A DNA stretch of 48,933 bases from Gemmiger formicilis (lineage in GTDB: Bacteria > Bacillota_I > Bacilli_A > RFN20 > CAG-826), in NCBI GenBank assembly GCA_963612735.1, contig CAVDWX010000062.1, positions 1-48,933 of the forward strand. The letters are read 5' to 3'. Every line of letters begins with the position of its first letter. Position 1 is the stretch's first letter. The notes under the pieces are model-generated. The model did no database searches. It saw nothing but the letters and a program-made list of their open reading frames with translations, and was not told the DNA's origin. Positions 26,691-43,994 of the stretch are shown here, one piece after another. The translations under genes were made by a program, and so were the position numbers.

Positions 26691-26699
26691 ATTATAGCA
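26691..26699 (-). promoter_or_regulatory. extended -10 promoter element (TGCTATAAT) for the lipoprotein gene
   Basis: The minus strand reads TGCTATAAT about 30 nt upstream of the ATG at 26662. TTGAAA lies upstream but the spacer is short. Confidence 0.4.
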
Positions 26700-26726
26700 A
26701 ATTTATTTACTTTCAACTTTTATAAT

Positions 26727-26785: not shown

Positions 26786-27703
26786 TTATCTAATGATGGT
26801 TCCACTTTCCTCTTTAAACGCTTTTTCGGCGTTTTCTAGATGAGCGATAATTGCACATTTACCTGGACAATGTTTTAGAAAGGATAAACATGCATTTACT
26901 TTTGGATACATTGAACCTTTGGCAAAATAATCTTTGGTTAGATAAGATTCCATTTCATTAATAGTAACATGTTCTAGTTTTACCTGGTCGGGTTTACCAA
27001 AATTAATGCATACATTATCCACAGCCGTAAGAATAACTAAATAATCAGCATGAACGAGTTCTGCGACTTTAGCACTGGCGTAATCTTTATCAACAACCGC
27101 AGCGACACCCACTAATTGATCGTTGTCTTTTATAACAGGGATACCGCCTCCACCAGCGCATATGACGACATCTTTATTTTTAACCAGTGTTAATATGGTA
27201 TCTTTTTCAATTATGTCTATTGGTAGTGGAGAAGGAACTACTCGACGATATCCTCTATTAGCGTCCTCTTTCATTACATAACCTTTAGTTTTAACTATTT
27301 CATCCGATTCTTCTTTCGAATAGAAACTTCCAACTGGTTTAGTTGGATTTAAAAATAATGGATCATTTTTATCGACGAGTACCTGACTAATAACTGTTAC
27401 TACATTACGCTTGACGCCTTCTTTTTTTAAGGCGTTACCAATTGCGTTTTGTAAATGATAGCCAATATATCCTTGTGACATCGCCCCACATTCTGGGAAT
27501 GGCATATCAGGAACACTTTTTGCGTCGGTAAAAGCAAGATTAATCATTCCCACTTGTGGGCCGTTACCATGAACGATAATAACTTCATTGCCATCTCTTA
27601 TTAATTCCACAATATAGGTAGCCACTTTACTGACTAATTCTTTTTGCTCTACTGCATTATTACCTAAGGCATTTCCACCTAAAGAAACAACATATCTTTT
27701 CAT
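26786..27703 (-). CDS. arcC: carbamate kinase
   Basis: Start moved to ATG 27701..27703 (MKRYVVSLGGNALG; GAGGTG RBS). The track start at 27763 is a TTG. Motif IIVHGNGPQVG. It is the counterpart of E. coli YqeA in the ygeW neighbourhood. Confidence 0.9.
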   Translation of the reverse strand: MKRYVVSLGGNALGNNAVEQKELVSKVATYIVELIRDGNEVIIVHGNGPQVGMINLAFTDAKSVPDMPFPECGAMSQGYIGYHLQNAIGNALKKEGVKRNVVTVISQVLVDKNDPLFLNPTKPVGSFYSKEESDEIVKTKGYVMKEDANRGYRRVVPSPLPIDIIEKDTILTLVKNKDVVICAGGGGIPVIKDNDQLVGVAAVVDKDYASAKVAELVHADYLVILTAVDNVCINFGKPDQVKLEHVTINEMESYLTKDYFAKGSMYPKVNACLSFLKHCPGKCAIIAHLENAEKAFKEESGTIIR

Positions 27704-27818
27704 AGACACCTCGCATATACTTTTCTCTATCATTATAAAGGATGAATTTCTTATTTTCATCAATTGTCGATTTTGAACTACATTTGAAAAATTAATTTAA
27801 TCTTTTTTTCTTCTAAAC

Positions 27819-27918: not shown

Positions 27919-28470
27919 ATGATTGATGCAGTCATTCTTGCTGGTGGATGTTCAGTTCGCTTTAAATCGAATAAACTCCTTTTTCTTATAAATGATAAAC
28001 CTCTTATAGTCCATTCTATTGAATCTCTTTTAGATTTTGCTTCTCATATTTATGTGGTGACAGGTCATTATCATAATGAAATATCTGAAGCAATTAAAAA
28101 TATTGATAAGGTCTCAATAATTTATAATTCTAATTATATGAAAGGGATGTTTTCATCTGCTCAAACCGGAATAAAAGAAACCTCGAATGATATTTTACTC
28201 CTTCCCGGAGATTGCTCTTTTGTTGATAAAAAAACAATTCAAAAAATAATTAGTGGAAAAGGGATGATGAGATGCCCTATTTATCAAGGTAAAACCGGAC
28301 ATCCTCTTTTTATCAAGAAAGAACTAAAGGATGAGATATTAAAATTACCAATTGATTCCAATTTAAAAGCATTTCGTGACCAAATTGGATATGAGACTAT
28401 CGAATGTGATGATCCTCATATTTTTATTGATATAGACACATTAAAAGATTATCAAAATCTTATTATTTAA
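27919..28470 (+). CDS. mocA: MobA/MocA-like nucleotidyltransferase (molybdenum cofactor cytidylyltransferase, YgfJ-like)
   Basis: 183 aa. N-terminal AVILAGGCSVRF..NKLL motif. It lies immediately upstream of the Mo-hydroxylase genes. Confidence 0.8.
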   Translation: MIDAVILAGGCSVRFKSNKLLFLINDKPLIVHSIESLLDFASHIYVVTGHYHNEISEAIKNIDKVSIIYNSNYMKGMFSSAQTGIKETSNDILLLPGDCSFVDKKTIQKIISGKGMMRCPIYQGKTGHPLFIKKELKDEILKLPIDSNLKAFRDQIGYETIECDDPHIFIDIDTLKDYQNLII

Positions 28471-28485
28471 GAGAAAGGAACTAAA

Positions 28486-29277
28486 ATGAAGATACAACAA
28501 TATTATCGTCCCACTAGTGTGGAAGATGCTTATCAAAAACTCGTTGAAAATCCTAAAAATGTTTTACTTGCTGGTGGATTTTGGCTTAAGAAAATGAATC
28601 AAAATTGTGAAACAATTATTGATTTATCTCCGTTAAAGCTCAATCAAATTCATGAAAATAAAGATTATGTTGTTGTTGGGAGCATGGTTAGTCAAAGAGA
28701 TTTTGAAAATTCTAAGATTATCCAAAACCTTTTTAATGATATGGCTGGATTTGCCGTTCGAGAAATAATGTCGGTCCCATTTAGAAATAGCGCAACGATT
28801 GGTGGATCAATCATGGGAAGATATCCTTTTTCGGATGTTATAACTGCCTTACTCGCGATGGATGTAACATTAAGGTTTTATCCAAAACAAGAAATTTCGT
28901 TAGTGGATTTTTTAAATTACAAAGGCAAATTTAATTCCATATTAGTTGATATTGTTATTAAAAAAGAAAAAGGAAAAGGCTTCTTTAAAAAAGTAAAAAC
29001 GACAGCCTTAGATTTCCCACTTATTAATATTGCTGTTAGTAAAAGTGATAAATATCGAATTGTTGTTGGTTCACGTCCCATGGTAGCGTCTTTAGCTATT
29101 AATGCGATGGATTACTTAAATAATTTTTCTAATCCGAGTGAAGAAGACTTTATTAAAGCTAGTGAAATTGCGGTGAATGAATTGAATTTCCTTGATAGCA
29201 TCAATATTTCTAAGGATTATCGCATCGCTTTAGCTAAAACTTATATTAAACGTGGTTTATTGGAGGTCAGCCAATAA
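28486..29277 (+). CDS. Mo-hydroxylase (xanthine dehydrogenase family) FAD-binding subunit, set 1
   Basis: 263 aa. CoxM/XdhB-like FAD_binding_5 start (YYRPTSVEDAY...LLAGGFWL) and ATIGGSI. Confidence 0.85.
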   Translation: MKIQQYYRPTSVEDAYQKLVENPKNVLLAGGFWLKKMNQNCETIIDLSPLKLNQIHENKDYVVVGSMVSQRDFENSKIIQNLFNDMAGFAVREIMSVPFRNSATIGGSIMGRYPFSDVITALLAMDVTLRFYPKQEISLVDFLNYKGKFNSILVDIVIKKEKGKGFFKKVKTTALDFPLINIAVSKSDKYRIVVGSRPMVASLAINAMDYLNNFSNPSEEDFIKASEIAVNELNFLDSINISKDYRIALAKTYIKRGLLEVSQ

Positions 29278-29726
29278 TGAAAGTAACATTTTATTTAAAT
29301 GAAATTTTGATGTCATTTGATGTCAAAGAAAGCGAATATCTTGCTGAAACGTTAAGAAAAAGTGGTCTTAAATCGATACGTTTAGGTTGTAATGAAACAT
29401 CTTGTGGAGCTTGCACTGTTTTAATTGATAATAAGCCAGTCTTATCGTGTGGAGTATTGACTGGACAAGTTGAAGGTCACCACATTACAACTGTAGAGGG
29501 AATTCAAGAAGAAGCTCTTAAAATCGCAAATTATTTTGCTGACCAAGGAGCGGATCAATGTGGATTTTGCAACGTTGGTTATGCATTAGTCCTATACGCT
29601 CTAAAAAGAGAATTAAATAATCCTAGTGATGATGAAATTAAAGATTATATCGTTGGTAATTTATGTCGTTGCACTGGCTATCAATCGCAATTAAAAGCTA
29701 TTCGTGCTTACTTGGAGGACAAATAA
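29277..29726 (+). CDS. Mo-hydroxylase [2Fe-2S]-binding small subunit, set 1
   Basis: 149 aa. Cys clusters CNETSCGACTV...SC and CGFC...CRCTGY. Its ATG overlaps the upstream stop (TAATG). Confidence 0.9.
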   Translation: MKVTFYLNEILMSFDVKESEYLAETLRKSGLKSIRLGCNETSCGACTVLIDNKPVLSCGVLTGQVEGHHITTVEGIQEEALKIANYFADQGADQCGFCNVGYALVLYALKRELNNPSDDEIKDYIVGNLCRCTGYQSQLKAIRAYLEDK

Positions 29727-29728
29727 AC

Positions 29729-32035
29729 ATGAGAGTTGTTAATAATAAAACCCATTCAGTGGATGGCAAAGGCCTCATGATGGGTCGCCCTGCTTACACT
29801 GATGATTTAGCGGAACAAAATTCATTAGTTATTAAAATATTACGTTCACCTCATGCTTTTGCTCATATTAAAAATATTGATACTAGCGAAGCGGAAGCAT
29901 TAAATGGTGTTGTTTTGGTTTTGACATATAAAGATGTGCCTCGCGTTTCTTTTTCCCGTGCTGGTCAAGGTTATCCTGAGCCATCTCCTCATGATAAATT
30001 CATTCTCGATGAATATGTGAGATATGTCGGTGATGAAGTAGCATGCGTTGCCGCGATTAATGAAGAAATTGCTGTTGAAGCTCTTAAACTTATCAAGGTT
30101 GATTATGAAATATTAGAACCTGTTTTAGATTTTGAAACCGCTTATGAAAATAAATCGGTTATTCATCCTGAAGATGGAATAAATGAAATGTTCCCGATTG
30201 GCTTTGAACCAAAGAAAAATGTCGCTGCTGCTTATGATATGGTAGTGGGAGACGTCAACAAAGTCATGAACGAATGCGATGTCGTTATTGAACACACCAT
30301 TTATTCACAAGCTCAAGCTCACGCTATGCTTGAACCTCATTCTTCTAATGCTAGATTAGACGAACATAATCGATTAGTTATCTATTCATCGACACAAACA
30401 CCATTCCATATGCGAAGAATTATGTCTACAACTCTAGGCATTCCAATTTCCAAAATTAGATTTATCAAACCTCGTGTTGGCGGTGGTTTTGGTGGAAAGC
30501 AAGCTTTTCATGGCGAATTCTTCTGTGCGTTAGTAACCTTGAAAACAGGTAGACCTACTAGATGCGTCTATACAAGAGAAGAAGTATTTGAATCTTCTTA
30601 TACTCGTCATCCAATGAAAATATCGATTAAATTAGGAGCAACTAAGGAAGGTAGAATTAGAGCCATTGATTGTAACGCTTTAAGCGATACTGGAGCGTAT
30701 GGAGAACATTCATTAACAGTTTTTATGATTGTAGGTAGTAAAGTTTTACCTCTATACAATAAGGTTGATGCCGTTCATTTTGGAGGAAAAGTGGTTTATA
30801 CCAATCACGTTTCCGCTGGTGCGTATAGAGGGTATGGCGCTATTCAAGGAAATTATGCTTTAGAAACAGCAGTGGATATCCTTGCTGAAAAACTTCACAT
30901 GAATCCAATGGTGGTTCGTGAAATTAATTCCATGAGAGAAAAAGAAACCTCTCCTATTTTTGAAATCATGGGAGAAGGTACAAAAGGTACCGCTATGATT
31001 ATGGAAAGTTGTAAATTACCATACTGCATTAAACGCGGTGCAGAATTAATTGATTGGAATAACAATTATCCGCGTAAAGTAGTCGGCCCTCATAAAGTCA
31101 GAGGATACGGAATGGCCATTGCCATGCAAGGAAGTGGCATACCATTTATGGATATGGGAAGCGCTACTATCAAATTGAATGATGGTGGTTCGTATAATTT
31201 AACCGTTGGAGCGACTGATATTGGACAAGGTTCCGATACCATCCTATGCCAAATTGCAGCGGAGGAATTAAGAACTACTGTTGATAAGATATTGATTTAT
31301 TCATCTGATACCGATTTAACCCCGTTTGATTGTGGAGCATATGCTTCATCTACTACTTATATATCCGGTAATGCGACTTGGAATGCTGCAAAAAAGATGA
31401 GAGAAAGATTAGAAAAAGAAGCAGCGGACTATTTAGGTGTGAAGTCAAATAGTATTGAATTTGACGGAGAAAAATTCACTTCAGGAGATAAGACTGTTAC
31501 TTTAAATGAACTATCAATTAAACTCTTATATAATCAAAATCAACATCAAGTTGCAGTGACTGAATCTTATTTTGGAAAAGTATCTCCCCCTCCCTTTATG
31601 GCGGCTTATGCTGAAGTGGAAGTTGATACTGAAACTGGCGAATATGAAGTCTTAAATTATGTTACGGTTACGGATTGTGGCACTACCATTAATCCGATGT
31701 TAGCGAAAGGACAAGTGGAAGGTGGTATTGCTCAAGGTTTAGGCATGGCATGCTTTGAAAGAGTAATCTATGATAAGAAAGGTAAACTTCTTTCTAATAA
31801 TTTCCTTTCATATCATGTGCCTACTCATAAAGAGATTCATCATTACATTACTGAATTTGCGGATTCATATGAACCAACTGGTCCATTTGGGGCAAAATCA
31901 GTGGGGGAAATTGGAATTGATACTCCGCCCGCAGTTATTTGTAATGCTATTTATAACGCTGTTGGAGTAAGAATTAACGATTTGCCAATCACTCCTGAAA
32001 AAATATATTTAGGCATGCAAAAACTTAAAAAATAA
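29729..32035 (+). CDS. Mo-hydroxylase molybdopterin-binding large subunit, set 1 (768 aa)
   Basis: Start moved to ATG 29729 (MRVVNNKTHSVDGKG; GGAGGA 9 nt upstream). The track start at 29663 overlaps the small subunit gene. Motifs RVGGGFGGKQ, GAYRGYG and C-terminal GAKSVGEIG. The substrate cannot be assigned by eye. Confidence 0.9.
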   Translation: MRVVNNKTHSVDGKGLMMGRPAYTDDLAEQNSLVIKILRSPHAFAHIKNIDTSEAEALNGVVLVLTYKDVPRVSFSRAGQGYPEPSPHDKFILDEYVRYVGDEVACVAAINEEIAVEALKLIKVDYEILEPVLDFETAYENKSVIHPEDGINEMFPIGFEPKKNVAAAYDMVVGDVNKVMNECDVVIEHTIYSQAQAHAMLEPHSSNARLDEHNRLVIYSSTQTPFHMRRIMSTTLGIPISKIRFIKPRVGGGFGGKQAFHGEFFCALVTLKTGRPTRCVYTREEVFESSYTRHPMKISIKLGATKEGRIRAIDCNALSDTGAYGEHSLTVFMIVGSKVLPLYNKVDAVHFGGKVVYTNHVSAGAYRGYGAIQGNYALETAVDILAEKLHMNPMVVREINSMREKETSPIFEIMGEGTKGTAMIMESCKLPYCIKRGAELIDWNNNYPRKVVGPHKVRGYGMAIAMQGSGIPFMDMGSATIKLNDGGSYNLTVGATDIGQGSDTILCQIAAEELRTTVDKILIYSSDTDLTPFDCGAYASSTTYISGNATWNAAKKMRERLEKEAADYLGVKSNSIEFDGEKFTSGDKTVTLNELSIKLLYNQNQHQVAVTESYFGKVSPPPFMAAYAEVEVDTETGEYEVLNYVTVTDCGTTINPMLAKGQVEGGIAQGLGMACFERVIYDKKGKLLSNNFLSYHVPTHKEIHHYITEFADSYEPTGPFGAKSVGEIGIDTPPAVICNAIYNAVGVRINDLPITPEKIYLGMQKLKK

Positions 32036-32052
32036 TGCAAAACGAGGTTTAA

Positions 32053-33360
32053 ATGAACGATTTATTAATTAAAAATGGTTTAGTTTATATTGATAATGAA
32101 TTTAAAAAGATAAATATCGGTATCAAAGATGAGCTCATATCTTATCTTGGTGAAGATGAGCTTCCTTCTTTAAAAGTTATCGACGCTAGTGGAAAGAAAA
32201 TCATTCCCGGCTTAATCGATAGTCATGTTCATTTTGAACTTTATTGTGGCACTATTACCTCTAGAGATGATTTTAGAAGTGGAACTATTTCTGGAGCGTA
32301 TGGAGGGGTCACCACTATAATTGACTTTTTAGACCCTTCTAGCACGGTTGAGGAACTCGTAACTACTTATAATGAAAGAAAAAAATTAGCCAAAAAAAGC
32401 GTTACGGATTATTGCTTTCACGCTTGCATTAAGGAACCTAAATGTGACTTAGAAGATTATGTTAAGAAAGTCAAAGAATTAGGAATGAATACCATTAAAT
32501 TATTCACTACTTATTCTGAAACACATCGAAGAACATATGATAAAGATATTATAAAATTATTGGAACTATCAAAAAAATATCATATTTTAATCACTGCTCA
32601 TATTGAAAATGATGAGCTTATTAATCATGATGATAATTTGCTTTGTGTAGATATAAATAAGGCCCGACCATCCATTGCTGAAACTAGTGAAGCCTTAAAA
32701 TTAGCATTGTACGCTAAAGAGACAGGCGGTTATTTATATATGGTTCATTGTAGCAGTGGTAAAACACTTAAATACCTTGTTGAACAATTTGGTGACATCT
32801 TGAATAAAAATTTATTCATCGAAAGCTGCCCGCAATATTTTATGTTTGATGATAGTGAATTTAATAAACCCAGCGGTGCTTTGTTCACTTTTGCTCCACC
32901 TTTAAGAAGTCGTGGTGAAAAAGAATTATTAAGTCAATATTATCGATATATAAATACGATAGGTACTGATCACTGTTCTTTTACCAAAAAGGATAAATTA
33001 TCTCATCCTTTATTAAATGGACACCCTCTTGGAATAGGTGGAATTGAATCTTCTTTCATGGTTATGCATTCATTATTCGGTGATGACATGATTGACAAAA
33101 TGAGCAAAAATATCGCTGATTTGATGGGAATTAAGAAAAAAGGTAGCATAAAAATTGGAAATTATGCTGATTTTGTTTTCTATATTGAAAAGGATGTAAT
33201 CATTGATAAACCTCATTCTAATGTCGATTATTCGATATATGAAGGGTTACATAGTGACATTGAAATTACTGATACTATAATTAGAGGTAGATATATTATT
33301 AATAACAAAAAATACATCGAAAATGTTGGGAGACTTTTAAATGAAGAAAGCACTGATTAA
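32053..33360 (+). CDS. hyuA: cyclic amidohydrolase of the dihydropyrimidinase/D-hydantoinase type (HyuA/YgeZ-like)
   Basis: 435 aa. Metal ligands DSHVHF, IKLFTTY (carboxylated Lys position), AHIEND, VHCSS and TDHCSF. CPQYFMFD matches the HyuA region as I remember it. Confidence 0.8.
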   Translation: MNDLLIKNGLVYIDNEFKKINIGIKDELISYLGEDELPSLKVIDASGKKIIPGLIDSHVHFELYCGTITSRDDFRSGTISGAYGGVTTIIDFLDPSSTVEELVTTYNERKKLAKKSVTDYCFHACIKEPKCDLEDYVKKVKELGMNTIKLFTTYSETHRRTYDKDIIKLLELSKKYHILITAHIENDELINHDDNLLCVDINKARPSIAETSEALKLALYAKETGGYLYMVHCSSGKTLKYLVEQFGDILNKNLFIESCPQYFMFDDSEFNKPSGALFTFAPPLRSRGEKELLSQYYRYINTIGTDHCSFTKKDKLSHPLLNGHPLGIGGIESSFMVMHSLFGDDMIDKMSKNIADLMGIKKKGSIKIGNYADFVFYIEKDVIIDKPHSNVDYSIYEGLHSDIEITDTIIRGRYIINNKKYIENVGRLLNEESTD

Positions 33361-34636
33361 CATTCGACTATATGATTATCATATTTACATTGAAAACGCT
33401 TATGTTGTTTTTGATAAAGAAATAATAGAAGTTGGTGAAATGACTGCTTTTCAAAATAATGATTATTTAATAATCGATGGAAAAGGAAAATTGTTGCTCC
33501 CTAATTTCGTTTGTGCTCACGCTCATATTTATTCGATATTTGCTCGAGGATTAGCTCTTCCCTTTAATCCCGCTAATTTTCAAGAGATATTGGATCAAAT
33601 GTGGTGGAAATTGGATTCACAAATCGATAATAAAATTACTTATTATTCAGGAATAGCGGCCGGCACTGAATTCATTAAAAATGGTGTTACCACGATTATT
33701 GATCATCACGCCTCAGGAAAAGAAATTTTAGCCTCTTTATCATCTTTAAAAAAATCTCTTGTAGACACCCTTAATTTAAGAGCGATTCTTTGCTTCGAAA
33801 CTAGCGATAGATATAAAATTGATGATTGCATCAAAGAAAATGTTTCATTCGCTAAAAGGTATCATAATTCTCACATTTCAGGATTATTTGGTTTGCATGC
33901 CTCTATGTCTTTAAGCGAAGACACCTTAAAATTAATCAAAAGAAAACAAAAAGATATTCCTCTTCATGTTCATGTTGGCGAATCGATTATGGATGAAGAA
34001 GACTCTATTAATAAATACGGATTAAGAATAATCAATCGATTTGCTAAATATGGATTGATTAAAGAAGATTCGTTAATTGTACATGGTGTATATTTAGATG
34101 AATGCGAATTAGATATAATTAAAAACTTAAAAGCCTATATGGTAGTAAATACTACTTCAAATATGAATAACGCAGTTGGACTACCAAACGTTAAAGCTTT
34201 TATTGATAAAGGCATTCCCGTCTTAGTGGGTAATGATGGGCTTTCCACTAGTATGGCGAATGAATATAATAATATTTTTTACACTTCTCATCTTAAAAAT
34301 GAATCCGCTACAACGCTTAATTTGAGTGATATTTTAAAGATGATTCTTAATGCTTATGACTATGCTTCAAGAAGACTAAATATTAAATTAGGAAGAATTG
34401 AAGCAGGCTATGTTTCTGACTTTTTGTTACTACCATATACACCATTTACTAAAATGGATAATTCTAATGCATTTGGTCATTTATTTTACGGCTTATATCC
34501 TAGTTTTAAACCAAGTCATGTCTTTGTTGATGGAAAATTATTGTTAAAGAATTATGAATTGGTTTCTAAAAAAGCAAAAGATGAATTAACAAAAGCAAAA
34601 ACTATATCTAATATACTTTGGGAAAGGGTTATTTAA
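33341..34636 (+). CDS. ssnA: SsnA-family amidohydrolase (chlorohydrolase/deaminase superfamily)
   Basis: 431 aa. Motifs CAHAHIYS, MWWKLD, YYSG, IDHHAS, CFETSDR, NMNNAVG and EAGYVSDF line up with E. coli SsnA as I remember it. 20-nt overlap with the upstream gene. Confidence 0.85.
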   Translation: MKKALINIRLYDYHIYIENAYVVFDKEIIEVGEMTAFQNNDYLIIDGKGKLLLPNFVCAHAHIYSIFARGLALPFNPANFQEILDQMWWKLDSQIDNKITYYSGIAAGTEFIKNGVTTIIDHHASGKEILASLSSLKKSLVDTLNLRAILCFETSDRYKIDDCIKENVSFAKRYHNSHISGLFGLHASMSLSEDTLKLIKRKQKDIPLHVHVGESIMDEEDSINKYGLRIINRFAKYGLIKEDSLIVHGVYLDECELDIIKNLKAYMVVNTTSNMNNAVGLPNVKAFIDKGIPVLVGNDGLSTSMANEYNNIFYTSHLKNESATTLNLSDILKMILNAYDYASRRLNIKLGRIEAGYVSDFLLLPYTPFTKMDNSNAFGHLFYGLYPSFKPSHVFVDGKLLLKNYELVSKKAKDELTKAKTISNILWERVI

Positions 34637-34638
34637 TT

Positions 34639-35727
34639 ATGGATTTAACAACTAAATTTGATGGATTAATTCTCAAAAATCCTTTAATGCCTGCGGCTGG
34701 TCCTCTTGTAGGTGATGCTCAAAAAATGCTTTGGCTAAAAGAGCAAGGATGTGGAGCAATTGTCGCTAAAACGATATCCACGAAGGATGCTCATATTCCT
34801 CATCCATGCATTTTTGGAGAAGGGCAAGGAACAATCTTTAACTGTGAATTATGGAGCGAATATCCTAAAGAAAAATGGATAAATGAATTCCTACCTGAAT
34901 TTGTTAAAAATAAAGGCGACACTCCCTTAATTATTTCTGTTGGCTATACCAAACAAGATATGGAAGAATTGATTCCTCTTTTAGATGAATTTGCGGATGC
35001 ATTTGAAGTCTCCACTCATTATGTTGGGACTTCTCATGAAGCGATTGGTGAAACTGTTAGAACTATTCGTTCTTTAACTTCTAAACCAATCTATATGAAA
35101 ATATCGCCACATATTCCTGATCCTAGTGGATTTGCAAGAACTATAAAAGAAAACGGTGCTAACGGAGTGGTAGCGATAAATTCTCTCGGACCAGCCATGA
35201 AAATTGACATTAAAGATAGAAGCATGGCAATCTCTAATTATGGCGGTTATGTGTGGATGAGTGGCCCTGTTATTAAACCTTTAGCATTAGCTACTGTTTA
35301 TACCATTAAACAAGCAGAGTCATCTTTAACCGTTATTGGAGTAGGTGGAGTTAGCTCCGCTGACGATGTCATCGAATTCCTTTTAGCGGGTGCTTCCGCA
35401 GTGGGAATGCTTTCCGCTCCAATGTTAAGAGGAAAAGAACTATATAAAAAGATTATTGATGATTTACCAAAAGCACTTATTAAATATGGGTTTAATTCTG
35501 TCCAAGAAGTCATCGATACTGCTTTAACAAATAAAGTTAAATATGAAGCTAATTTGCCTAGTGTAGATGCTTTAAAATGCACGCACTGCAAATTATGTAT
35601 GAGGAATTGCCCATATTTTGCTATTGATATGGATGAACATGTTGTTCCATTTTTTAATACAAATAAATGTTTTAGATGTGGTCTATGTGCCTCTAAATGT
35701 CCAAGTAAGGCTATTAATTTTAAATAA
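34639..35727 (+). CDS. dihydroorotate/dihydropyrimidine dehydrogenase-like FMN protein with a C-terminal 2x[4Fe-4S] ferredoxin domain (PreA-like)
   Basis: Start moved to ATG 34639 (MDLTTKFDGL; GGAAAGGG upstream). The track start is a TTG. Motifs NPLMPAAGP, AIVAKTIS, MKISP, VAINSLGP and IGVGGVSSADDVIEFLLAGASAV. Fe-S motifs CTHCKLCMRNCP and CFRCGLCASKCP. Confidence 0.85.
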   Translation: MDLTTKFDGLILKNPLMPAAGPLVGDAQKMLWLKEQGCGAIVAKTISTKDAHIPHPCIFGEGQGTIFNCELWSEYPKEKWINEFLPEFVKNKGDTPLIISVGYTKQDMEELIPLLDEFADAFEVSTHYVGTSHEAIGETVRTIRSLTSKPIYMKISPHIPDPSGFARTIKENGANGVVAINSLGPAMKIDIKDRSMAISNYGGYVWMSGPVIKPLALATVYTIKQAESSLTVIGVGGVSSADDVIEFLLAGASAVGMLSAPMLRGKELYKKIIDDLPKALIKYGFNSVQEVIDTALTNKVKYEANLPSVDALKCTHCKLCMRNCPYFAIDMDEHVVPFFNTNKCFRCGLCASKCPSKAINFK

Positions 35728-35732
35728 AATAT

Positions 35733-37829
35733 ATGCGAAATCAATTTCTAACATCAGTAAAAAAAGTCGATAACGAAGAGAAAATGTCTGGTGAAGCCTT
35801 ATTCACAGATGATATCCCCATGGATGGTGTTTTAAACGCAATCATGATAAGGAGTAGCATAGCTAGAGGCAAAATTAATGAAATTGAAGTTCCCCCTCTT
35901 CCTGATGGCTATTATTTCATCAGCGCAAAAGATATCGTTAAAGAAAATGTATGCAATATTATCTTTTCAGATTGGCCAGTTTTCGCTGATAAAGAAGTTA
36001 ATTATTTAGGTGAAACTATTGGCTTATTAATTGGTGAAGATAAAAACATTTTACTGGAATTATCGCATCAAATTTATGTTGATTATGAAGAAGAAACGCC
36101 AGTATATGATATGGTTAATAGTTATATTCATAAAGAATTCACTAAAGGCGATATTATTAAAATAAAAAAAGATGCAATTAAAGTAATTAGTGAATCTTTT
36201 GAAACTGGTTATCAAGAGCAAGTCTATTTAGAAACTCAAGGGATGCTCATGTATTTAGACGACGATAAGATTACAGTTAAAGCTTCTATGCAATGTCCAT
36301 TTTATGTTAAAAAAGCTATTGTTAGAACTCTTGGCTGTCCTGAAGATAAAGTAAGAGTTATTCAACCTGCAGTGGGTGGAGCATTTGGTGGTAAGGAACA
36401 TTTCCCCTCCCTTATGGCAGCTCAATTAGCCACAGCGATTGTTAAAATTAAAAAACCCATCAAAATGATTTTTGATCGAAGTGAAGACATTGCTTTTACT
36501 ACAAAAAGACATCCTAGTAAAACAACGATATCGGCTTATATCGATGATAACAACAATATCTTAGGAATGAAAATTGTGGTGGGTATTGATGGAGGTGCCT
36601 ATAAAGGGTGTTCAGGAGTAGTTTTATCGCGTGCTCTTATCGCTTGTACAAATACGTATACCTTTGATAATTTAGAAGTATATGGCGATGCTTATTGCAC
36701 TAACAAAGTTCCTTCTGCTGCCTTTAGAGGATTTGGTTCGCCTCAAACCATATTTGCTATTGAAATGTTTATGCATCATTTGGCAAAAGAATTAGGCGTT
36801 GATCCTTTATTATTAAGAGAAAAATATATGGTCAAAACAGGAGATATTACAGCTACTTCTGGTATATTTAGAGATGATATTATTCTTGATAAAATCGAGC
36901 ATAAAGCGATGGAAATGTCTCACTATAAAGAAAAAATAAAAGAGTATAGTAAGCCAAATTGTTATAAAGGAATTGGCATGTCATTCTTTTTACATGGCTG
37001 TGGATTTACCGGTAGTGGAGAAAGCGACATCATCAAAGCTAAAGTGAGAATGAATAAGGATGAGAATGGAATAGTTAGGTTTTATACTTCTCAAGTTGAT
37101 TTTGGACAAGGCAATAGAACTACACTTAAAAGAATCGTTGTTGATACCCTTCAAATTCCAGAAGATAAGGTTATATATGACGCTCCTGATACTGACTTAA
37201 CTTTAAATAGTGGACCCACTGCCGCATCTAGAACTACGATTATCGTGGGTGGATTGGTGGCTAAGGCTGCAAAGCATTTAAAATCGATATGGAAAGATGG
37301 AGAATTTCAAGAAATCATCGAGCCATATGTTGGTCCTAGTTATATTAAATGGGATGAAAATACTATGCAAGGTGATGCTTATCCAGGCTATGCTTGGGGC
37401 GCTAATGTGGTTGAAGTAGATGTAGATCCGATTACTTATCAAGTTAAGATTTTGGGTTGCTGGTCGGTTTATGATGTCGGTCATTGTATTGATGAAAGAA
37501 TATGTTACGGGCAAGCTGATGGTGGCTTAGTTCAAGCATTAGGTTATGGCTATATGGAAAATTGTGTTGCAGTAGATGGCAAGTTTAGACAAAAAACTTT
37601 GTCAGATTATATTATTCCTACTACCAAAGATATTCCTACTTTAGAAACTGCTTTCATAGATAACCCGTTTAAATTTGGAGCCTTTGGGGCAAAAGGAGCA
37701 GGAGAACTTACTTTTGTTGGTGGAGCCCCCGCTTTAGCCTTAGCTATTGAAAACGCAATTAATAAAAAAATAAATAAAATTCCTGCAAATCCTGAATATA
37801 TTATGGAGTTAATGAATAATGAAGATTAA
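35733..37829 (+). CDS. Mo-hydroxylase molybdopterin-binding large subunit, set 2 (698 aa, shorter than set 1)
   Basis: Motifs AVGGAFGGKE, AAFRGFG and GAKGAGELT. The N-terminus KKVDNEEKMSGEALFTDDI aligns with the usual R-x-D-x3-K-x-TG-x-A-x-Y-x-D start. It begins 5 nt after the PreA-like gene. No obvious Shine-Dalgarno (SD) sequence. Confidence 0.85.
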   Translation: MRNQFLTSVKKVDNEEKMSGEALFTDDIPMDGVLNAIMIRSSIARGKINEIEVPPLPDGYYFISAKDIVKENVCNIIFSDWPVFADKEVNYLGETIGLLIGEDKNILLELSHQIYVDYEEETPVYDMVNSYIHKEFTKGDIIKIKKDAIKVISESFETGYQEQVYLETQGMLMYLDDDKITVKASMQCPFYVKKAIVRTLGCPEDKVRVIQPAVGGAFGGKEHFPSLMAAQLATAIVKIKKPIKMIFDRSEDIAFTTKRHPSKTTISAYIDDNNNILGMKIVVGIDGGAYKGCSGVVLSRALIACTNTYTFDNLEVYGDAYCTNKVPSAAFRGFGSPQTIFAIEMFMHHLAKELGVDPLLLREKYMVKTGDITATSGIFRDDIILDKIEHKAMEMSHYKEKIKEYSKPNCYKGIGMSFFLHGCGFTGSGESDIIKAKVRMNKDENGIVRFYTSQVDFGQGNRTTLKRIVVDTLQIPEDKVIYDAPDTDLTLNSGPTAASRTTIIVGGLVAKAAKHLKSIWKDGEFQEIIEPYVGPSYIKWDENTMQGDAYPGYAWGANVVEVDVDPITYQVKILGCWSVYDVGHCIDERICYGQADGGLVQALGYGYMENCVAVDGKFRQKTLSDYIIPTTKDIPTLETAFIDNPFKFGAFGAKGAGELTFVGGAPALALAIENAINKKINKIPANPEYIMELMNNED

Positions 37830-38292
37830 TTTCACGCTTAATCATAAGCCGCTAGAAGTCGATGTCGATCCATCGATGAGGCTTTTAGATTTACTTAGAG
37901 ATGTTTTAAATTTAAAAGGTGTTAAAGAAGGATGTGGGGAAGGTGCATGTGGTGCATGTACTGTTTTAGTTGATAAACAATGTTACGATTCCTGCCTTAC
38001 TCCCGTGGCTAATATAATTAATAAAGATATATTAACAATTGAAGGATTTAAGTTAACAAAAGAATATCGAATCATCGCTGATGCTTTTGCTGATATGGGA
38101 GGAAGCCAATGCGGTTTTTGTACCCCTGGAATGATTATGGCAACGTATGGTTTATTTTTGCATAACCCTCATCCAAGTGAAGAAGAAATACGCGTTGCAC
38201 TATCTGGCAATTTATGCCGATGCACAGGCTATCAGGCTATTATTAATGCTGTTTTAGAAGCTAGTGAAAAAGGAGACGGATTATGGAAATAA
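37819..38292 (+). CDS. Mo-hydroxylase [2Fe-2S]-binding small subunit, set 2
   Basis: 157 aa. Cys clusters CGEGACGACTV...SC and CGFCTPG...CRCTGY. 11-nt overlap with the large subunit gene. Confidence 0.9.
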   Translation: MKINFTLNHKPLEVDVDPSMRLLDLLRDVLNLKGVKEGCGEGACGACTVLVDKQCYDSCLTPVANIINKDILTIEGFKLTKEYRIIADAFADMGGSQCGFCTPGMIMATYGLFLHNPHPSEEEIRVALSGNLCRCTGYQAIINAVLEASEKGDGLWK

Positions 38293-39134
38293 AACATTTC
38301 ATTCCAACTTCCTTAAAAGAAGCACTTGAAATTATTTCTAATCATGATTGTTTTATCTTAGCTGGTGGAACGGATTTGATGGTTCAAAAACATAAAAGTA
38401 AAGGACTTCTTCCTAACTTTGATAAAGATGTCATTTATATCTCTAATTTAAAAGAATTAAATTATGAATATATTGATGAAAACGGTGATTATCATATTGG
38501 CTCAACTGTTAAATATGTTCAATTAGAAAATAGCAAAATTTGTCCTCAAATATTAAAAGATATAATTGTTGAAATTGCCTCACCAAATATTCGAAATATG
38601 GCGACACTAGCAGGAAATATTGGAAATGCATCTCCTGCTGGAGATTCTCTAGTGGGGCTTTATCTATTAGATGCTAAAATCAAATTGTCATCGTTAAAAG
38701 GCGAAAGAATTCTTCCGATAAATGAATTCATTAAAGGCGTTAGAAAAATTGATAGGCATTTTGATGAATTGATTACTGAAATTATTATTCCTAATGGATA
38801 TCAAAAACTAACTTATTATTGGAAGAAAGTTGGCTCTCGCGCTGCCGAATCAATTTCTAAATTGTCCTTTTTAGGAGCATATGAAATTAAAGACAACCAT
38901 TTAGTGGATTTCCGCCTTGCATTTGGAAGCGTTTCAATTACTGTTGTAAGGAATAAAGATATTGAAAAAGATTATATAGGGTTAGAGGTACCGCTCTTAC
39001 CTTCTATAATAGATAGTATAGTATCAAGGTATTATACGATTATTAATCCAATTACTGATCAAAGATCAAACAAGGATTATCGGAAAAAGGTGGCAATGAA
39101 TTTGCTCACCCATTTCTTAACTAACATCAAATAA
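38283..39134 (+). CDS. Mo-hydroxylase FAD-binding subunit, set 2 (YgfM/XdhB-like)
   Basis: 283 aa. Motifs ILAGGTDLMV and ATLAGNIGNASPAGDS. 10-nt overlap with the small subunit gene. Confidence 0.85.
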   Translation: MEIKHFIPTSLKEALEIISNHDCFILAGGTDLMVQKHKSKGLLPNFDKDVIYISNLKELNYEYIDENGDYHIGSTVKYVQLENSKICPQILKDIIVEIASPNIRNMATLAGNIGNASPAGDSLVGLYLLDAKIKLSSLKGERILPINEFIKGVRKIDRHFDELITEIIIPNGYQKLTYYWKKVGSRAAESISKLSFLGAYEIKDNHLVDFRLAFGSVSITVVRNKDIEKDYIGLEVPLLPSIIDSIVSRYYTIINPITDQRSNKDYRKKVAMNLLTHFLTNIK

Positions 39135-39144
39135 GGAGGCGATA

Positions 39145-40389
39145 ATGAGCTACATTAAAGGTTATGTTTGTACTATATGTGGAAAGTTTTTTCTCCCAGA
39201 AGAAGTTGATTTAACTTGTCCAAATTGTGGGGAAAAAGGAATTCTCGATGTCGTTTTTGACTATGAAGCACTTAAAAAAGTCTTAACGAAAGATTATTTT
39301 AAGAATAATAAAGATTATTCAATGTGGAGATATGCTCCTCTAATGGGTATAGAAAATACCCATGTTAACGAAATGCTTAGAATTGGTTGGACACCATTAA
39401 TTAAGTCGAGAAATCTAGCAAAAGAGCTAGGAATTAAAGAACTTTTCATAAAAGATGATGGTTTAAACCCAAGCGGTTCAAGTAAAGATAGAGCCTCTGG
39501 AGTAGCAGTTTTAAATGCGATTGAAGCGGGAGCGGATACCATATCTTGTTCTTCAACTGGCAACGCCGCATCTAGCTGCGCATGTCATGCTGCTCATATG
39601 GGACTTAAATCAGTTATCTTTGTTCCAAAACGCGCTCCAATTGGAAAATTAACACAAATATCGATGTATGGAGCAACTCTAATTGTTGTGGACGGAGATT
39701 ATAAAGCAGCTTTTTCATTATCTAAAGAAGCGATTAAAAAATATCATTGGTATAATCGAAATGCCGCAATTAATCCTTTTATGGTTGAAGGCAAAAAAAC
39801 TGTCTCTTTAGAAATTGCCGAACAACTCGATTTCAAACCAACTGATTGGGTATGTGTTTCAGTCGGTGATGGCTGCACTATTGGTGGAGTTTATAAAGGC
39901 TTCTCTGATTTATATAAATTAGGATTTATTGATTATATTCCACGTATATTAGGTGTTCAATCCACCGGCTGTGAGCCATTTGTTGCTGCTAATAAGCAAA
40001 ATGCTCCACTTGTGGAATGCGAAGAAAATACTATCGCAGATTCAATTGCGGTTGGCATTCCTCGCAATCCTATTAAAGCTTTAAATGCTGTTAAAAATTC
40101 TCATGGAGCCTGGATAAGTGTTCCTGATGAAGATATTTTAAAAGCGATGGCTTTATTAGGTAAAAAAGAAGGTGTCTTTGGCGAACCAGCGGGTGTTACT
40201 TCTCTTGCTGGATTAATCAAAGCGCTAGAAACTGGCATTATTAAAAAGGATGAAACTGTGACTATAATAGTGACAGGTAATGGTTTAAAAGATCCTTTGA
40301 ATGCACAAAAAGCCATTATGCATCCTGAAATTATGAAACCAAATATAAATGAACTTGACAAATATTTAAAAGAAAAAGGAGTGATTTAG
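39145..40389 (+). CDS. threonine synthase-like fold-type II PLP enzyme with an N-terminal zinc ribbon
   Basis: 414 aa. Zinc ribbon CTICGKFF...CPNCGEKG...VVFDY, as in archaeal/Thermotoga-type ThrC. PLP-Lys motif NPSGSSKDR. Gly-rich loop SVGDG. GGAGG RBS. Confidence 0.75.
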   Translation: MSYIKGYVCTICGKFFLPEEVDLTCPNCGEKGILDVVFDYEALKKVLTKDYFKNNKDYSMWRYAPLMGIENTHVNEMLRIGWTPLIKSRNLAKELGIKELFIKDDGLNPSGSSKDRASGVAVLNAIEAGADTISCSSTGNAASSCACHAAHMGLKSVIFVPKRAPIGKLTQISMYGATLIVVDGDYKAAFSLSKEAIKKYHWYNRNAAINPFMVEGKKTVSLEIAEQLDFKPTDWVCVSVGDGCTIGGVYKGFSDLYKLGFIDYIPRILGVQSTGCEPFVAANKQNAPLVECEENTIADSIAVGIPRNPIKALNAVKNSHGAWISVPDEDILKAMALLGKKEGVFGEPAGVTSLAGLIKALETGIIKKDETVTIIVTGNGLKDPLNAQKAIMHPEIMKPNINELDKYLKEKGVI

Positions 40390-40390
40390 T

Positions 40391-41758
40391 ATGTCAAAAA
40401 TTCCATTTGGTCCAACTTATGATGAGATGTTAAATCCTAATCATCAAGATCCAGAAGTCAGAAAGCTTGCTTCAAAGGCATTAAAAGAAAATGAACTTGA
40501 TCCGATTAATCTATTTAACATTACTTGGAAAAATGAAAAAGGCGAAGTAAGAAAAATAGTTCTCCCCAAAGAATTGACTGGTGTCGATGCAAATATAGTG
40601 GTCTTACTTGGCAAAGATTTTCCTTCAGGCTCACATAAAGTTGGTCCTGCTTATTCAACATTAATTGAGGGCTGTGTTGATGGAGATATTATTCCTGGTA
40701 AACACACCATCTTAGGGCCATCAACTGGTAACTTTGGTATTGGAGTTAGCTACATTGCTAATCTAATGAAATATGATGCCATTGTTATTATGCCTGATAA
40801 CATGTCTAAAGAAAGATACGAAAGAATTCAAAGATATGGAGCGAAATTAGATCTTACTCCTGGTAGTGAATCTGATGTTATTTTAACGTTAGAAAGAACA
40901 TATGAATTAAAGAAAAATCCTAACTACCGCACCTTAGCGCAGTTCGAACTACTTCCAAATTATCGTTTCCATCGTCATGTAACAGGTAATTCTTGTGTTG
41001 AAGCTGTTAAGGGTATTGGAAATGGACGTATTGCTTGCTTCTGTAGCGCTCCTGGTAGCGCTGGCACCTTAGCGGCAGGTGATCAAATTAAAGCTGTCTT
41101 CCCTGAAGCTAAAATCGTGGCTTTAGAACCGCATGAATGTTCTACTCTTACCAATGGTGGACGTGGACAACATCGTATTGAAGGTATCGGAGATAAGATG
41201 TGTACACTTATTCACAATGTTTTGACTACTGATTTTATTACTCAAATTATTGATGATGATTGTGTTAGAGGATTAGAAGTCATCCATGAAGGTAGTGAAG
41301 TTTTAGAAAAGCATGGTATTTCTAAACAAGTAGCGGAATCTTTAAAAGATTTATTTGGCGTTTCTGGAATTTGTAATATTTTAGGCGCTATTAAAATGGC
41401 TAAATATTTGCGTTTAGGACCCGATGATAATGTGGTTACTATTGCCACTGATAGTTTTGATAGATATGAATCAGTCATTCAAAATCTCCATCAACGCGAA
41501 TTAGAAGTAACCGATAATGTTTTAGAAAGATGGTATGAAGATATCTTCCTTGGCGCTGACACTAATTACGTTTTAGATACACGTGGTAATGAAGCCAAAG
41601 AACTATTATTTGCTCAAAAAGAAAGAGATTGGCTCCCATTTGGTTATACCAAAAACTATTTAGATTCAATGAGAAAAATGTCCTTCTGGGACCATGAATA
41701 TCATAAAATTGATGAATATGACGAAAAGATTAAAAGAATGCGAGGTAAAGAAATTTAA
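40391..41758 (+). CDS. fold-type II PLP enzyme, CysK/CBS-like core with a long C-terminal extension (possibly of the OrtB-type lyase/thiolase group)
   Basis: 455 aa. Candidate PLP-Lys in FPSGSHKVG. Motifs [23 protein letters not shown] and HRIEGIGD. The OrtB relationship is a recollection-based guess, not verified. Confidence 0.65.
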
Positions 41759-42969
41759 TGAAAATCCCTTTTAGTGAAGTACTCGAAAAAGCCAAATCAT
41801 ATGAAAAAGATATGACCAAGTTTCTTCGCGATATGATTGCTATTCCTAGTGAATCATGTGGAGAAGAAAAAGTAATTTTAAGAATTAAAGAAGAAATGGA
41901 AAAAGTAGGTTTTGATAAGATTGTTATCGATCCTATGGGAAACATTTTAGGCTATGTTGGTCACGGCTCACACCTCATCGGTATGGACGCCCATATCGAC
42001 ACAGTTGGAATTGGAGAAATCAAAAACTGGAAGTTTGATCCATACACTGGTTTTGAAGATGATGTCTATATCGGTGGAAGAGGTGCCTCTGATCAAGAAG
42101 GTGGTATGGCCTCTATGGTCTATGCTGCAAAAATCATCAAAGATTTACATTTAGAAGATGATTACACCTTAGTAATTACTGGCACTGTTCAAGAAGAAGA
42201 CTGCGACGGTCTATGTTGGCAATATATTATTGAACAAGATAAAGTTAAACCAGAGTTTGTCTTAATTACTGAACCAACTTCTTGTCGAATTTATCGCGGT
42301 CATCGTGGAAGAATGGAAATTAAAGTTTCCACGCGCGGCATTTCTTGCCATGGCAGCGCTCCCGAAAGAGGAGTTAATGCTATCTATATGATGGCACCTA
42401 TCATTGAAGATATTAAAAAGCTTAACGAAAGACTAAAGGATGATCCATTCTTAGGAAAAGGGACAGTCACTATTTCTCAAATCTTCCATAAATCACCATC
42501 TCGATGTGCTGTAGCAGATGGATGCTGGATTTCTTTAGATCGAAGATTGACCGATGGAGAAACTTATTTATCAGCGATTAAAGAAATAGAAGAGTTACCC
42601 TCAGTTAAAGCCGCGAATGCCGTAGTGGAAATGTATGATTATGATCGACCTGCTTACACTGGATTAGTTTATCCAACGAAAGCGTTCTTCCCAACATGGG
42701 TTATTCCAGAAGATGATATTTTATGTCGTTCTATGAAAGAAGGATATGAAGAATTATTTAATGAAGAACCAATTATCGATAAATGGACCTTCTCCACTAA
42801 TGGAGTTTCCATTATGGGAAGATTTGGCATTAAATGTATTGGCTTTGGCCCAGGCGATGAAAAAGAAGCCCATGCTCCAAATGAAAAAACAAGGAAAGCC
42901 GATCTTGTTAAATGTGCTGCATTATATGCCGTTATGCCTCTTCTATATTTAGAAAATTTAAAAAAATAA
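41758..42969 (+). CDS. ygeY: YgeY-family M20 metallohydrolase (deacylase / N-carbamoyl-amino-acid-amidohydrolase-like)
   Basis: 403 aa. Near-collinear with E. coli YgeY as I remember it: [62 protein letters not shown] and [13 protein letters not shown]. Its ATG overlaps the upstream stop. Confidence 0.9.
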
Positions 42970-42989
42970 AGGAGTTTTACACTAAATTT

Positions 42990-43994
42990 ATGGAAAAAGT
43001 TACAAAAATGGAACCTTTATTCAAAGGTCGCCATCTCATCACACTTGAAGAATGGAGCAAACCAGAAATCGACAAATTACTCGAAGTCAGTAAGGAACTT
43101 AAAGAAATGTTCCACAATGATATTCCCACTCCATTTTTAGAAAACAAAACTGGATTTTTAATGTTCTTTGAACAATCCACAAGAACTCGTAATTCATTTG
43201 AAGCTGGAATGGCTGAATTAGGAGGACATGCTACGTTCTTAGATACTTCAATGATGCAAATCGCTCACGGAGAAAGCGCTAAAGACACCGCTACAATTTT
43301 ATCCTCTTTTGGACATATGATCGCTTGTCGTTATTGCAACTGGGGATTAGGCAATAAATATATTCGTGAAATGGCGAAATGGTCAACCGTGCCAGTTATC
43401 AATTTACAATGTGATTTGTTCCATCCTATGCAAGCGCTTGCTGATTTGATGACCATGCAAGAAGTTTTCCCAACTACTAAACATTTAAAAGTGTCTATTA
43501 TTTGGGCTTACGCTACTACTCATAAAAAACCAATTTCAGTTCCTCTTTCTCAAATTCTATTATTCCCTAGATATGGAATGGATGTTACTTTAGCTTATCC
43601 TGAAGGATACGATTTACCTGATTGGGCCATTGAAAAAGCGAAAAAGAACGCTATTGAAAATGGTGGTTCATTTAGAATTACACATGATATGGAAGAAGCA
43701 TATCGCGGAGCGGATGTTGTCTTTCCTAAAAACTGGGGTTCATGGGTTACAAATCAATCAACCGCGGTCGTCGATGATTTATTAGAATCTTATAAGAGTT
43801 GGAAATGTACTGAAGCGATGATGGCTTTAGCAAATCCTGGCTGCAAATTCATGCATGCTCTTCCTGCTGATAGAAACCACGAAGTCGAAGATTCTGTTAT
43901 CGATGGTCCTCAATCTATTGTCTATCAAGAGGCTGAAAATCGTTTACATACCGCTAAAGCTGTTATGTGCATGGTTGTAGGTGGCAAGAAATAG
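42990..43994 (+). CDS. ygeW: YgeW-type (knotted) carbamoyltransferase
   Basis: Start moved to ATG 42990 (MEKVTKMEPLF; AAAGGAG 15 nt upstream). The track start at 42912 overlaps ygeY. Motifs STRTR, QIAHGES, INLQCDLFHPMQALADL, GMDVTLAYPEGYDLP, GGSFRITHDMEEAYRGADVVFPKNWGSW and HALPADR. Confidence 0.9.
   Translation: MEKVTKMEPLFKGRHLITLEEWSKPEIDKLLEVSKELKEMFHNDIPTPFLENKTGFLMFFEQSTRTRNSFEAGMAELGGHATFLDTSMMQIAHGESAKDTATILSSFGHMIACRYCNWGLGNKYIREMAKWSTVPVINLQCDLFHPMQALADLMTMQEVFPTTKHLKVSIIWAYATTHKKPISVPLSQILLFPRYGMDVTLAYPEGYDLPDWAIEKAKKNAIENGGSFRITHDMEEAYRGADVVFPKNWGSWVTNQSTAVVDDLLESYKSWKCTEAMMALANPGCKFMHALPADRNHEVEDSVIDGPQSIVYQEAENRLHTAKAVMCMVVGGKK

Follow-up and report, generated by a model that had tools for sequence, protein, structure and literature searches.

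The stretch of DNA considered here (the window, 48,933 nucleotides) is contig CAVDWX010000062.1 of assembly GCA_963612735.1, deposited as Gemmiger formicilis and placed by GTDB in Bacillota_I, Bacilli_A, RFN20, CAG-826. Its G+C content is ~32%, and reading of the open reading frames (ORFs) and of the sequence places a single long plus-strand operon at 27919-43994. The operon encodes two molybdenum (Mo) hydroxylases, termed set 1 and set 2, each as a trio of Mo-pterin, 2Fe-2S (FeS) and flavin adenine dinucleotide (FAD) subunits, and directly before set 2 lies a gene for a flavin mononucleotide (FMN)/[4Fe-4S] reductase that we refer to as UacX. A first-pass annotation had proposed that this PreA-like reductase and the three set-2 subunits form a four-subunit hydroxylase-reductase module. 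In our view, the product of the gene at 34639-35727 is instead probably an enzyme of UacX type, which in the anaerobic reductive uric-acid pathway is the ferredoxin-domain counterpart of YgfK. The four-subunit module is not supported by the comparative evidence from adjacency, fusions and coupling, and seems distinctly unlikely.

Two groups published the anaerobic uric-acid pathway in 2025. XdhD (DOPDH) dehydroxylates urate to 2,8-dioxopurine, YgfK (DOPOR) reduces the 2,8-dioxopurine, SsnA and HyuA open the two rings, and YgeW or UacY, together with YgeY, strip the ureido groups. The published products of YgfK with SsnA are ureidomethyl-hydantoin and 5-ureido-dihydrouracil, and the reduction of 2,8-dioxopurine was detectable only when it was coupled to SsnA. 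In C. difficile, the place of YgfK is taken by UacX, which has a PF01180 domain and an Fe-S domain but no FAD domain, and which is the proposed yanthine/2,8-dioxopurine reductase with reduced ferredoxin as its proposed donor (Li et al., Life Metab 2025, PMC12507026). The genes at the locus match the published pathway, with a MocA gene, the two hydroxylase trios, HyuA, SsnA, YgeY, a YgeW-like transferase and carbamate kinase, and no protein in the 99%-complete genome reaches the cut-off of the YgfK family TIGR03315.

Pfam places a DHO_dh domain (PF01180) at residues 3-280 of UacX and two 4Fe-4S motifs within residues 307-359, and neither Pfam nor NCBIfam gives the protein an FAD or NAD(P)H domain of its own. 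The cluster ligands are Cys314, Cys317, Cys320 and Cys324 for one cluster and Cys344, Cys347, Cys350 and Cys354 for the other, and all eight are invariant among 62 homologues. An AlphaFold2 model built with these 62 homologues (predicted local distance difference test score 93.6, predicted template modelling score 0.90) has its best fold match in pig dihydropyrimidine dehydrogenase (DPD), where the FMN barrel and the C-terminal cluster domain are both matched (domains IV-V, TMq 0.84); with the lactococcal dihydroorotate dehydrogenase DHODB, only the barrel is matched (TMq 0.74). As in PreA/PreT and mammalian DPD, electrons would be expected to run from two [4Fe-4S] clusters to FMN and on to the substrate. 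Unlike these enzymes, UacX has no adjacent PreT, scores below the PreA cut-off, has a purine as its proposed substrate and has lost the catalytic Cys loop, a deletion of the seven residues (MNLSCPQ) that carry the proton-donor Cys in DPD (pig Cys671), PreA and class-1 dihydroorotate dehydrogenase (DHODH). At this site the genome’s own PreA reads IEMNLSCPQMTSHAMG and UacX reads FEVSTHYVG; in all UacX orthologues at 56% identity or above, FE-[VIL]STHYVG replaces the NLSCP loop (residues 122-130). Elsewhere in the barrel sequence, Cys57 lies in a P-x-P-C motif and is nearly invariant, and the N-terminus of UacX has a weak similarity to YgfK residues 54-168 (30% identity, E=6e-4).

A relative of UacX with 50% identity carries a different loop motif, YVPRYV (locus L110/L111, 8926-14173). 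Its neighbours are a carbamoyltransferase, an M20 peptidase, an SsnA-like amidohydrolase (41% identical), cytidine/dCMP-type deaminases and a nucleoside ABC transporter, with no Mo enzyme at the locus, and it may belong to a different reductive N-heterocycle pathway.

We infer the substrate of UacX from this architecture and setting. The first-pass annotation had suggested a PreA-like enzyme that reduces the C4=C5 double bond of a purine ring, and this idea stands in part. A purine rather than a pyrimidine enzyme agrees with the published UacX, but the site does not, as the products point to C5/C6. Because both published products of YgfK with SsnA would, from their names, be saturated at C5 and C6, the reduction of 2,8-dioxopurine probably parallels that of uracil at C5=C6 and not a reduction at C4=C5. 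In the route that we propose for the operon, set 1 would dehydroxylate urate to 2,8-dioxopurine, and UacX would pass electrons through its two [4Fe-4S] clusters to FMN for saturation of 2,8-dioxopurine (yanthine/isoxanthine) at C5/C6. SsnA would then open the reduced ring at once, pulling the unfavourable reduction forward, and HyuA, YgeY, the YgeW-like transferase and carbamate kinase would complete the pathway. Set 2 would act as a separate hydroxylase resembling xanthine dehydrogenase (XDH), converting hypoxanthine and xanthine to urate. UacX would take the same position in the pathway, directly before SsnA, as YgfK of E. coli and C. sporogenes, the NAD(P)H:2,8-dioxopurine oxidoreductase, which differs in being ~1030 amino acids (aa) long with its own GltD-like FAD/NAD(P)H module, a module that UacX does not have.

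By published description, C. difficile UacX is closer. It likewise combines a PF01180 FMN domain with a C-terminal Fe-S domain and no FAD/NADPH domain, replaces YgfK in a uricolytic cluster marked by SsnA, and is expected to use a donor other than NAD(P)H. The locus in the window differs from the C. difficile cluster in having two complete Mo-FeS-FAD trios, in having YgeW and carbamate kinase in place of UacY, and in lacking YgeX; it belongs to an uncultured lineage of Bacilli that has a small genome and no free ferredoxin.

The gene neighbourhood of UacX was followed through species-representative genomes, which gave 80 loci, all from uncultured Bacilli (including rumen, horse-gut, Acholeplasmatales and Mariniplasma metagenome-assembled genomes (MAGs)), with UacX identities of 64-82%. 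The order of the 14 genes is identical in every sufficiently long locus of the 80, and the same order recurs in 12 genomes of greater divergence, which belong to three other families, except for two insertions, described below with the hydroxylases. Outside the Bacilli clade, representative and profile searches together with contig look-ups found seven contexts of distant orthologues (56-62% identity). Here the adjacency of UacX and set 2, which would be expected to hold across genomes if the four genes formed a unit, is kept in only one of the seven: in a contig with a UacY-type (C. difficile-like) cluster, where the UacX homologue has 60% identity, UacX is followed after a 120-nt spacer by set 2, with a fused FeS-Mo enzyme further on. 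Four contexts (Clostridium sp. MB40-C1, C. brassicae and two metagenome or MAG contigs) have the order SsnA-UacX-[FAD-FeS-Mo, set-1 type]-(MocA)-[Mo-FeS-FAD, set-2 type], so that the set-1 FAD gene is the next gene after UacX. In the remaining two, Thermosipho ferrireducens and one metagenome contig, UacX is the last gene of the operon and no hydroxylase lies within 9-10 kb; the hydroxylase genes of T. ferrireducens are >100 kb from UacX. SsnA, in contrast, lies directly upstream of UacX in six of these contexts, and in the seventh a single gene separates the two. The steadier neighbour of UacX is SsnA rather than a hydroxylase, and this linkage agrees with the published dependence of the reduction on coupling to SsnA. 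In a Thermosipho-like uricolytic operon, the gene between SsnA and UacX encodes 425 aa and has no Pfam match (locus L118, 7705-8982).

The two hydroxylases, the only Mo hydroxylases in the genome, appear to have different tasks. The Mo subunit of set 1 is nearer to E. coli XdhD (37.6% identity, 494 bits) than to E. coli XdhA (31.6%, 367 bits), the set-1 FAD subunit resembles YgfM more closely than XdhB, and the order FAD-FeS-Mo matches ygfM-xdhD. A GEG insertion in the Mo subunit (EIMGEGTKGTAM) aligns with the E. coli XdhD segment GAIGEGKAPTSV, which holds Glu606, the residue held responsible for the orientation of urate (Li et al., 2025, PMC12507026), and this insertion is absent from XdhA and from all set-2-type proteins. 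The score against the XdhD family TIGR03313, 568 bits against a cut-off of 1101.9, covers the Mo part only, with FeS and Mo on separate genes rather than fused. From the identity to XdhD, the YgfM-like FAD subunit, the gene order and the Glu606 insertion, set 1 is, judged on sequence, a split XdhD/YgfM-type urate/2,8-dioxopurine enzyme (urate 6-dehydroxylase).

The Mo subunit of set 2 has only 24-25% identity to E. coli XdhA or XdhD, and among solved structures its best relative is bovine xanthine oxidoreductase (XOR; 202 bits over the full length). In the alignment to the bovine enzyme, Glu222, Arg332 and Glu658 are equivalent to E802, R880 and E1261. Set 2 thus shares with bovine XOR and with bacterial XdhABC/PucCDE the Mo, 2x[2Fe-2S] and FAD modules and the Glu/Arg/Glu triad, and differs from xanthine dehydrogenases in its low identity to E. 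coli XdhA, in its order Mo-FeS-FAD and in scores below the XDH equivalog cut-offs (NF043082, 328 against 780 bits; TIGR03196, 321 against 783 bits). Sister families within the class have an adenine deaminase gene directly 3′ of the set-2 FAD gene and, after set 1, an XdhC/CoxI-type chaperone gene with small extra genes (L097, 6334-7176 and 14260-15972; L100, 4773-6686 and 13800-15524); both the chaperone and the adenine deaminase insertions are missing from the family of the window. The relation to bovine XOR, the conserved triad and the adenine deaminase of the relatives bear out the proposal that set 2 is an electron-releasing hydroxylase resembling xanthine dehydrogenase, and set 2 is best read, on its sequence and context, as a xanthine/hypoxanthine dehydrogenase that would feed other purines into urate. 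In C. sporogenes, the purine-feeding role of a separate XDH was shown genetically. In the genome of the window, E. coli YqeB found a partial match only (29% over residues 19-250, contig C43), and YqeC found no match above 60 bits.

Table 1. Genes and features of the uric-acid operon and its divergent neighbour in the window (+, forward strand; -, reverse strand; PLP, pyridoxal phosphate).
Feature	Position	Strand	Remarks
Carbamate kinase (YqeA/ArcC)	26786..27763	-	Divergent from operon; TIGR00746 381 bits; 51% identity to E. coli YqeA
MocA/YgfJ-like Mo-cofactor cytidylyltransferase	27919..28470	+	First gene of the operon; TIGR03310 120 bits
Set-1 hydroxylase trio	28486..32035	+	FAD 28486-29277; 2Fe-2S 29277-29726; Mo 29729-32035
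HyuA-like hydantoinase/dihydropyrimidinase	32053..33360	+	TIGR02033 218 bits; 28% identity to E. coli HyuA
SsnA amidohydrolase	33341..34636	+	NF005540 361 bits
UacX-type reductase (probable)	34639..35727	+	362 aa; ATG 34639, TAA 35727; PF01180 115 bits and Fer4 motifs
UacX ferredoxin-like domain	35551..35724	+	Fer4_7 at residues 313-358
Set-2 Mo-pterin large subunit	35733..37829	+	698 aa; XDH-like; PF01315/PF02738/PF20256
Set-2 2x[2Fe-2S] subunit	37819..38292	+	157 aa; Fer2 and Fer2_2; 45% identity to E. coli XdhC
Set-2 FAD subunit	38283..39134	+	283 aa; FAD_binding_5 and CO_deh_flav_C; 28% identity to E. coli XdhB
Two PLP fold-type II enzymes	39145..41758	+	ThrC-like, 414 aa, and CysK-like, 455 aa; family matches
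YgeY peptidase	41758-42969	+	68% identity to E. coli YgeY
YgeW-like carbamoyltransferase	start ~42990-43008, end 43994	+	37% identity to E. coli YgeW

The ThrC-like and CysK-like proteins (Table 1) sit at the position expected for YgeX, the diaminopropionate ammonia-lyase. They are only weakly similar to E. coli YgeX, and no YgeX orthologue was found in the genome. Homologues of both PLP enzymes adjoin Mo-hydroxylase genes in T. ferrireducens (L115, L116), and the Clostridium-type clusters retain a true YgeX. Two ORFs on the reverse strand lie outside the operon. One, at 25394-26716, encodes a predicted lipoprotein of 440 aa that carries a signal peptide as well as a lipobox Cys and has no Pfam match. 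The other, of 1180 aa at 15555-19097, was considered as pyruvate:ferredoxin oxidoreductase (PFOR) and set aside, as it has no Pfam match and the PFOR of this genome was found on contig C55.

The layout from which the four-subunit module had been proposed is as the first-pass annotation described it. The stop codon of UacX (TAA, 35727) is separated from the ATG of the set-2 Mo gene (35733) by 5 nt, the set-2 genes overlap by 11 nt (Mo/FeS) and 10 nt (FeS/FAD), and the set-2 Mo subunit is ~70 aa shorter than its set-1 counterpart (698 and 768 aa). The set-2 Mo gene also has no visible Shine-Dalgarno (SD) sequence, and it is the sole one of 13 operon starts that lacks an upstream purine-rich SD-like run; the set-1 Mo start at 29729, for example, is preceded by GGAGG at -12. 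Met18 was considered as an alternative start of the set-2 Mo subunit and rejected. Relatives conserve the 17 N-terminal residues but not Met18, which makes ATG 35733 the genuine start. Among the related loci, 17 of 80 have the stop of UacX and the start of set 2 overlapping as TAATG, most others have 0-13 nt between the two, and GGAGG appears once the spacer reaches ~9-26 nt. Translational coupling between UacX and set 2 is thus real and conserved, but it is not particular to these genes. The stop of SsnA is 2 nt from the start of UacX, and all 12 measured junctions, from MocA through YgeY, fall between -20 and +17 nt. Because every measured junction is similarly short, the close spacing of the four genes is not special, and we infer that the 5-nt spacer and the overlaps reflect compaction of the whole 14-gene operon and not a dedicated complex.

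The physical link between UacX and set 2 was also approached through rate covariation and through fusions. A distance-matrix mirror-tree analysis used 55 loci and the window, with pairwise distances that are not independent of one another, and a branch-based analysis used a fixed tree with 107 branches and 66 gene pairs. In the mirror-tree analysis, UacX falls into one block with the set-2 subunits; the partial r is 0.42 for UacX with set-2 Mo and 0.35-0.53 within set 2, and the set-1 trio, which is surely a complex and was the expected positive control, gives only 0.06-0.17. The branch-based values are weak throughout, with r of 0.33 for the set-1 FAD and FeS subunits, 0.26 for the two PLP proteins, -0.14 for UacX with set-2 Mo and -0.17 for UacX with set-2 FAD. 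A scan of eight proteins that are unusually long or multi-stretch, taken from among the 150 best family representatives, showed no fusion to an XDH-type FeS or FAD module. The natural fusions of the barrel in the wider family are instead to GltD-like or FrhB-like modules, which suggests that other members of the family draw on donors of NAD(P)H type and of F420/ferredoxin type. One of these proteins, P0179, has a YgfK-like layout (DHO_dh, Fer4_20, Pyr_redox_2 and Fer4), and the DHO_dh/Fer4 unit is fused to FrhB/FdhB domains in others (P0234, P0236).

The nature of the electron donor is approached here by analogy. In C. chromiireducens (Clostridium), PydAc has a DPD-type barrel without an FAD module and runs on reduced ferredoxin (PMC7332683). 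By this comparison, the donor of UacX should be a low-potential carrier, although PydAc differs in having two ferredoxin domains (four [4Fe-4S] clusters) and in acting on uracil within a pyrimidine cluster, whereas UacX has a single C-terminal dicluster domain (eight Cys) within a purine cluster. Dicluster domains occur in this genome only in UacX, PreA, PFOR, hydrogenase-like proteins and two proteins encoded on contigs C76 and C87. The last of these (C87:880-1767) is an EFR1-like protein of 295 aa in which a flavodoxin-like domain is joined to a Fer4 dicluster domain, and it is the only visible candidate for a carrier to UacX in this lineage. Ferredoxins of 61-112 aa are present in sister-family, Thermosipho and Clostridium genomes (63-94 aa in the sister families).

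Several observations weigh against a UacX that stands apart from set 2 and draws on a soluble carrier. The likeness to C. difficile UacX (Q181U4) is one of published architecture and context, and the study that proposed UacX lists an assay protocol for it and reports no result (Li et al., 2025, PMC12507026). UacX is followed by set 2 in 88/88 related Bacilli loci. Its strongest covariation is with the set-2 FeS subunit, at a mirror-tree partial r of 0.56, similar to the pairs within set 2, and a branch-based r of 0.24, the third highest of the 66 pairs. Neither the genome of the window nor those of three family-mates (G231, G244 and G396) encodes a stand-alone dicluster (2x[4Fe-4S]) ferredoxin, and no Flavodoxin_1 protein was found in the genome of the window. 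As the genomes of the family are without a free dicluster ferredoxin, a soluble-ferredoxin donor is not obvious here, and it is on this single point that the idea of direct wiring between UacX and set 2 survives.

Direct wiring could take the form of UacX docking, stably or transiently, on set 2, so that its [4Fe-4S] clusters take electrons from the 2Fe-2S/FAD chain and the oxidation of hypoxanthine or xanthine drives the reduction of 2,8-dioxopurine, with no soluble carrier or NAD(P)H subunit involved. The points just listed on adjacency, covariation and missing carriers speak for such docking, as do the conserved TAATG overlaps and short spacers and the one cluster outside the Bacilli in which set 2 also follows UacX. 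The stoichiometry would fit as well, with 4 electrons released from hypoxanthine to urate and 4 consumed from urate to diaminopropionate. However, the adjacency is nonspecific. All 88 loci are wholly collinear, so the constant pairing of UacX with set 2 says nothing about these four genes in particular, and synteny was for this reason discarded as evidence of a complex. The four Clostridium-type clusters place set-1 FAD next to UacX, and T. ferrireducens and one contig have no hydroxylase nearby. The co-evolution of UacX with the set-2 subunits, which a complex would lead one to expect, amounts to a hint in the FeS subunit, where r=0.24 (p~0.01 uncorrected) is not significant over 66 pairs; the Mo and FAD subunits are negative in the same branch-based analysis, and the set-1 control gives little signal. 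The fusion scan yielded no Rosetta-stone link to XDH-type modules, and the translational coupling is operon-wide. On this balance, docking of UacX on set 2 is unlikely. For the more specific idea that, in these ferredoxin-less small-genome Bacilli, the [4Fe-4S] domain of UacX plugs into the 2Fe-2S/FAD wire of set 2 as a carrier-free supercomplex, the chance appears slim.

A GltD/PreT-type NAD(P)H module encoded elsewhere might also serve UacX in trans, so that a YgfK-like enzyme would be made up from separate genes. The window itself holds no PreT or YgfK module, as the first-pass annotation had noted, and PF14691 and TIGR03315 find matches only on contigs C10 and C76, so that both a PreT and a GltD-like protein are encoded in the genome. 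YgfK and DPD combine exactly these modules, and the fusion P0179 joins them naturally. The PreT on contig C10 (C10:76873-79352; L013, 6873-9352) is a protein of 409 aa (PF14691, 111 bits), but its gene overlaps that of a canonical PreA of ~415 aa with an NLSCP loop, and the pair is unlinked to the purine operon. A PreT encoded elsewhere had been named as a finding that would tell against the four-subunit module, and a canonical PreT-PreA pair does exist; as this PreT has its own PreA partner, however, it is not decisive and does not settle the question of a partner for UacX. The protein on contig C76 (L014, 898-3804) is an Fe-S flavoprotein of 968 aa with several domains; it has a GltD-like core and matches YgfK at positions 439-888 only, and its gene lies between hypB and hypA, not beside purine genes. 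Neither candidate is linked to the urate operon in any locus examined, and supply of UacX by either of them is very unlikely.

That the gene encodes an ordinary pyrimidine enzyme, a dihydroorotate dehydrogenase or a PreA/PydA-type dihydrouracil dehydrogenase placed in the operon by chance, is extremely improbable, since its best families (PyrD-type DHODH, 163 bits, and PreA, NF006183, 133.7 bits) and best folds (DPD and DHODB) are of this kind but the scores fall far below the curated cut-offs (269 and 335 bits, respectively), the loop with the proton-donor Cys has given way to FE-[VIL]STHYV in the orthologues, the genome has a separate canonical PreA, and orthologues in three phyla adjoin SsnA, or lie within one gene of it, in uricolytic clusters.

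The reading of the gene as a UacX-type counterpart of YgfK therefore places its role as a reductase within the existing literature, where UacX is so far a bioinformatic proposal, and on present evidence the locus is a well-conserved variant of the pathway. To that proposal the locus adds the missing Cys loop of DPD and DHODH, SsnA as the conserved partner and the lack of YgeX, and the absence of a free dicluster ferredoxin from the family sharpens the question of the donor to UacX. If true, a direct coupling of UacX to an XDH would amount to a new mode of wiring for a Mo hydroxylase. In gut bacteria, the anaerobic uric-acid pathway has relevance to urate disposal and gout, and its UacX variant is found widely, as a conserved operon of 14 genes, among uncultured Bacilli of the rumen and gut.

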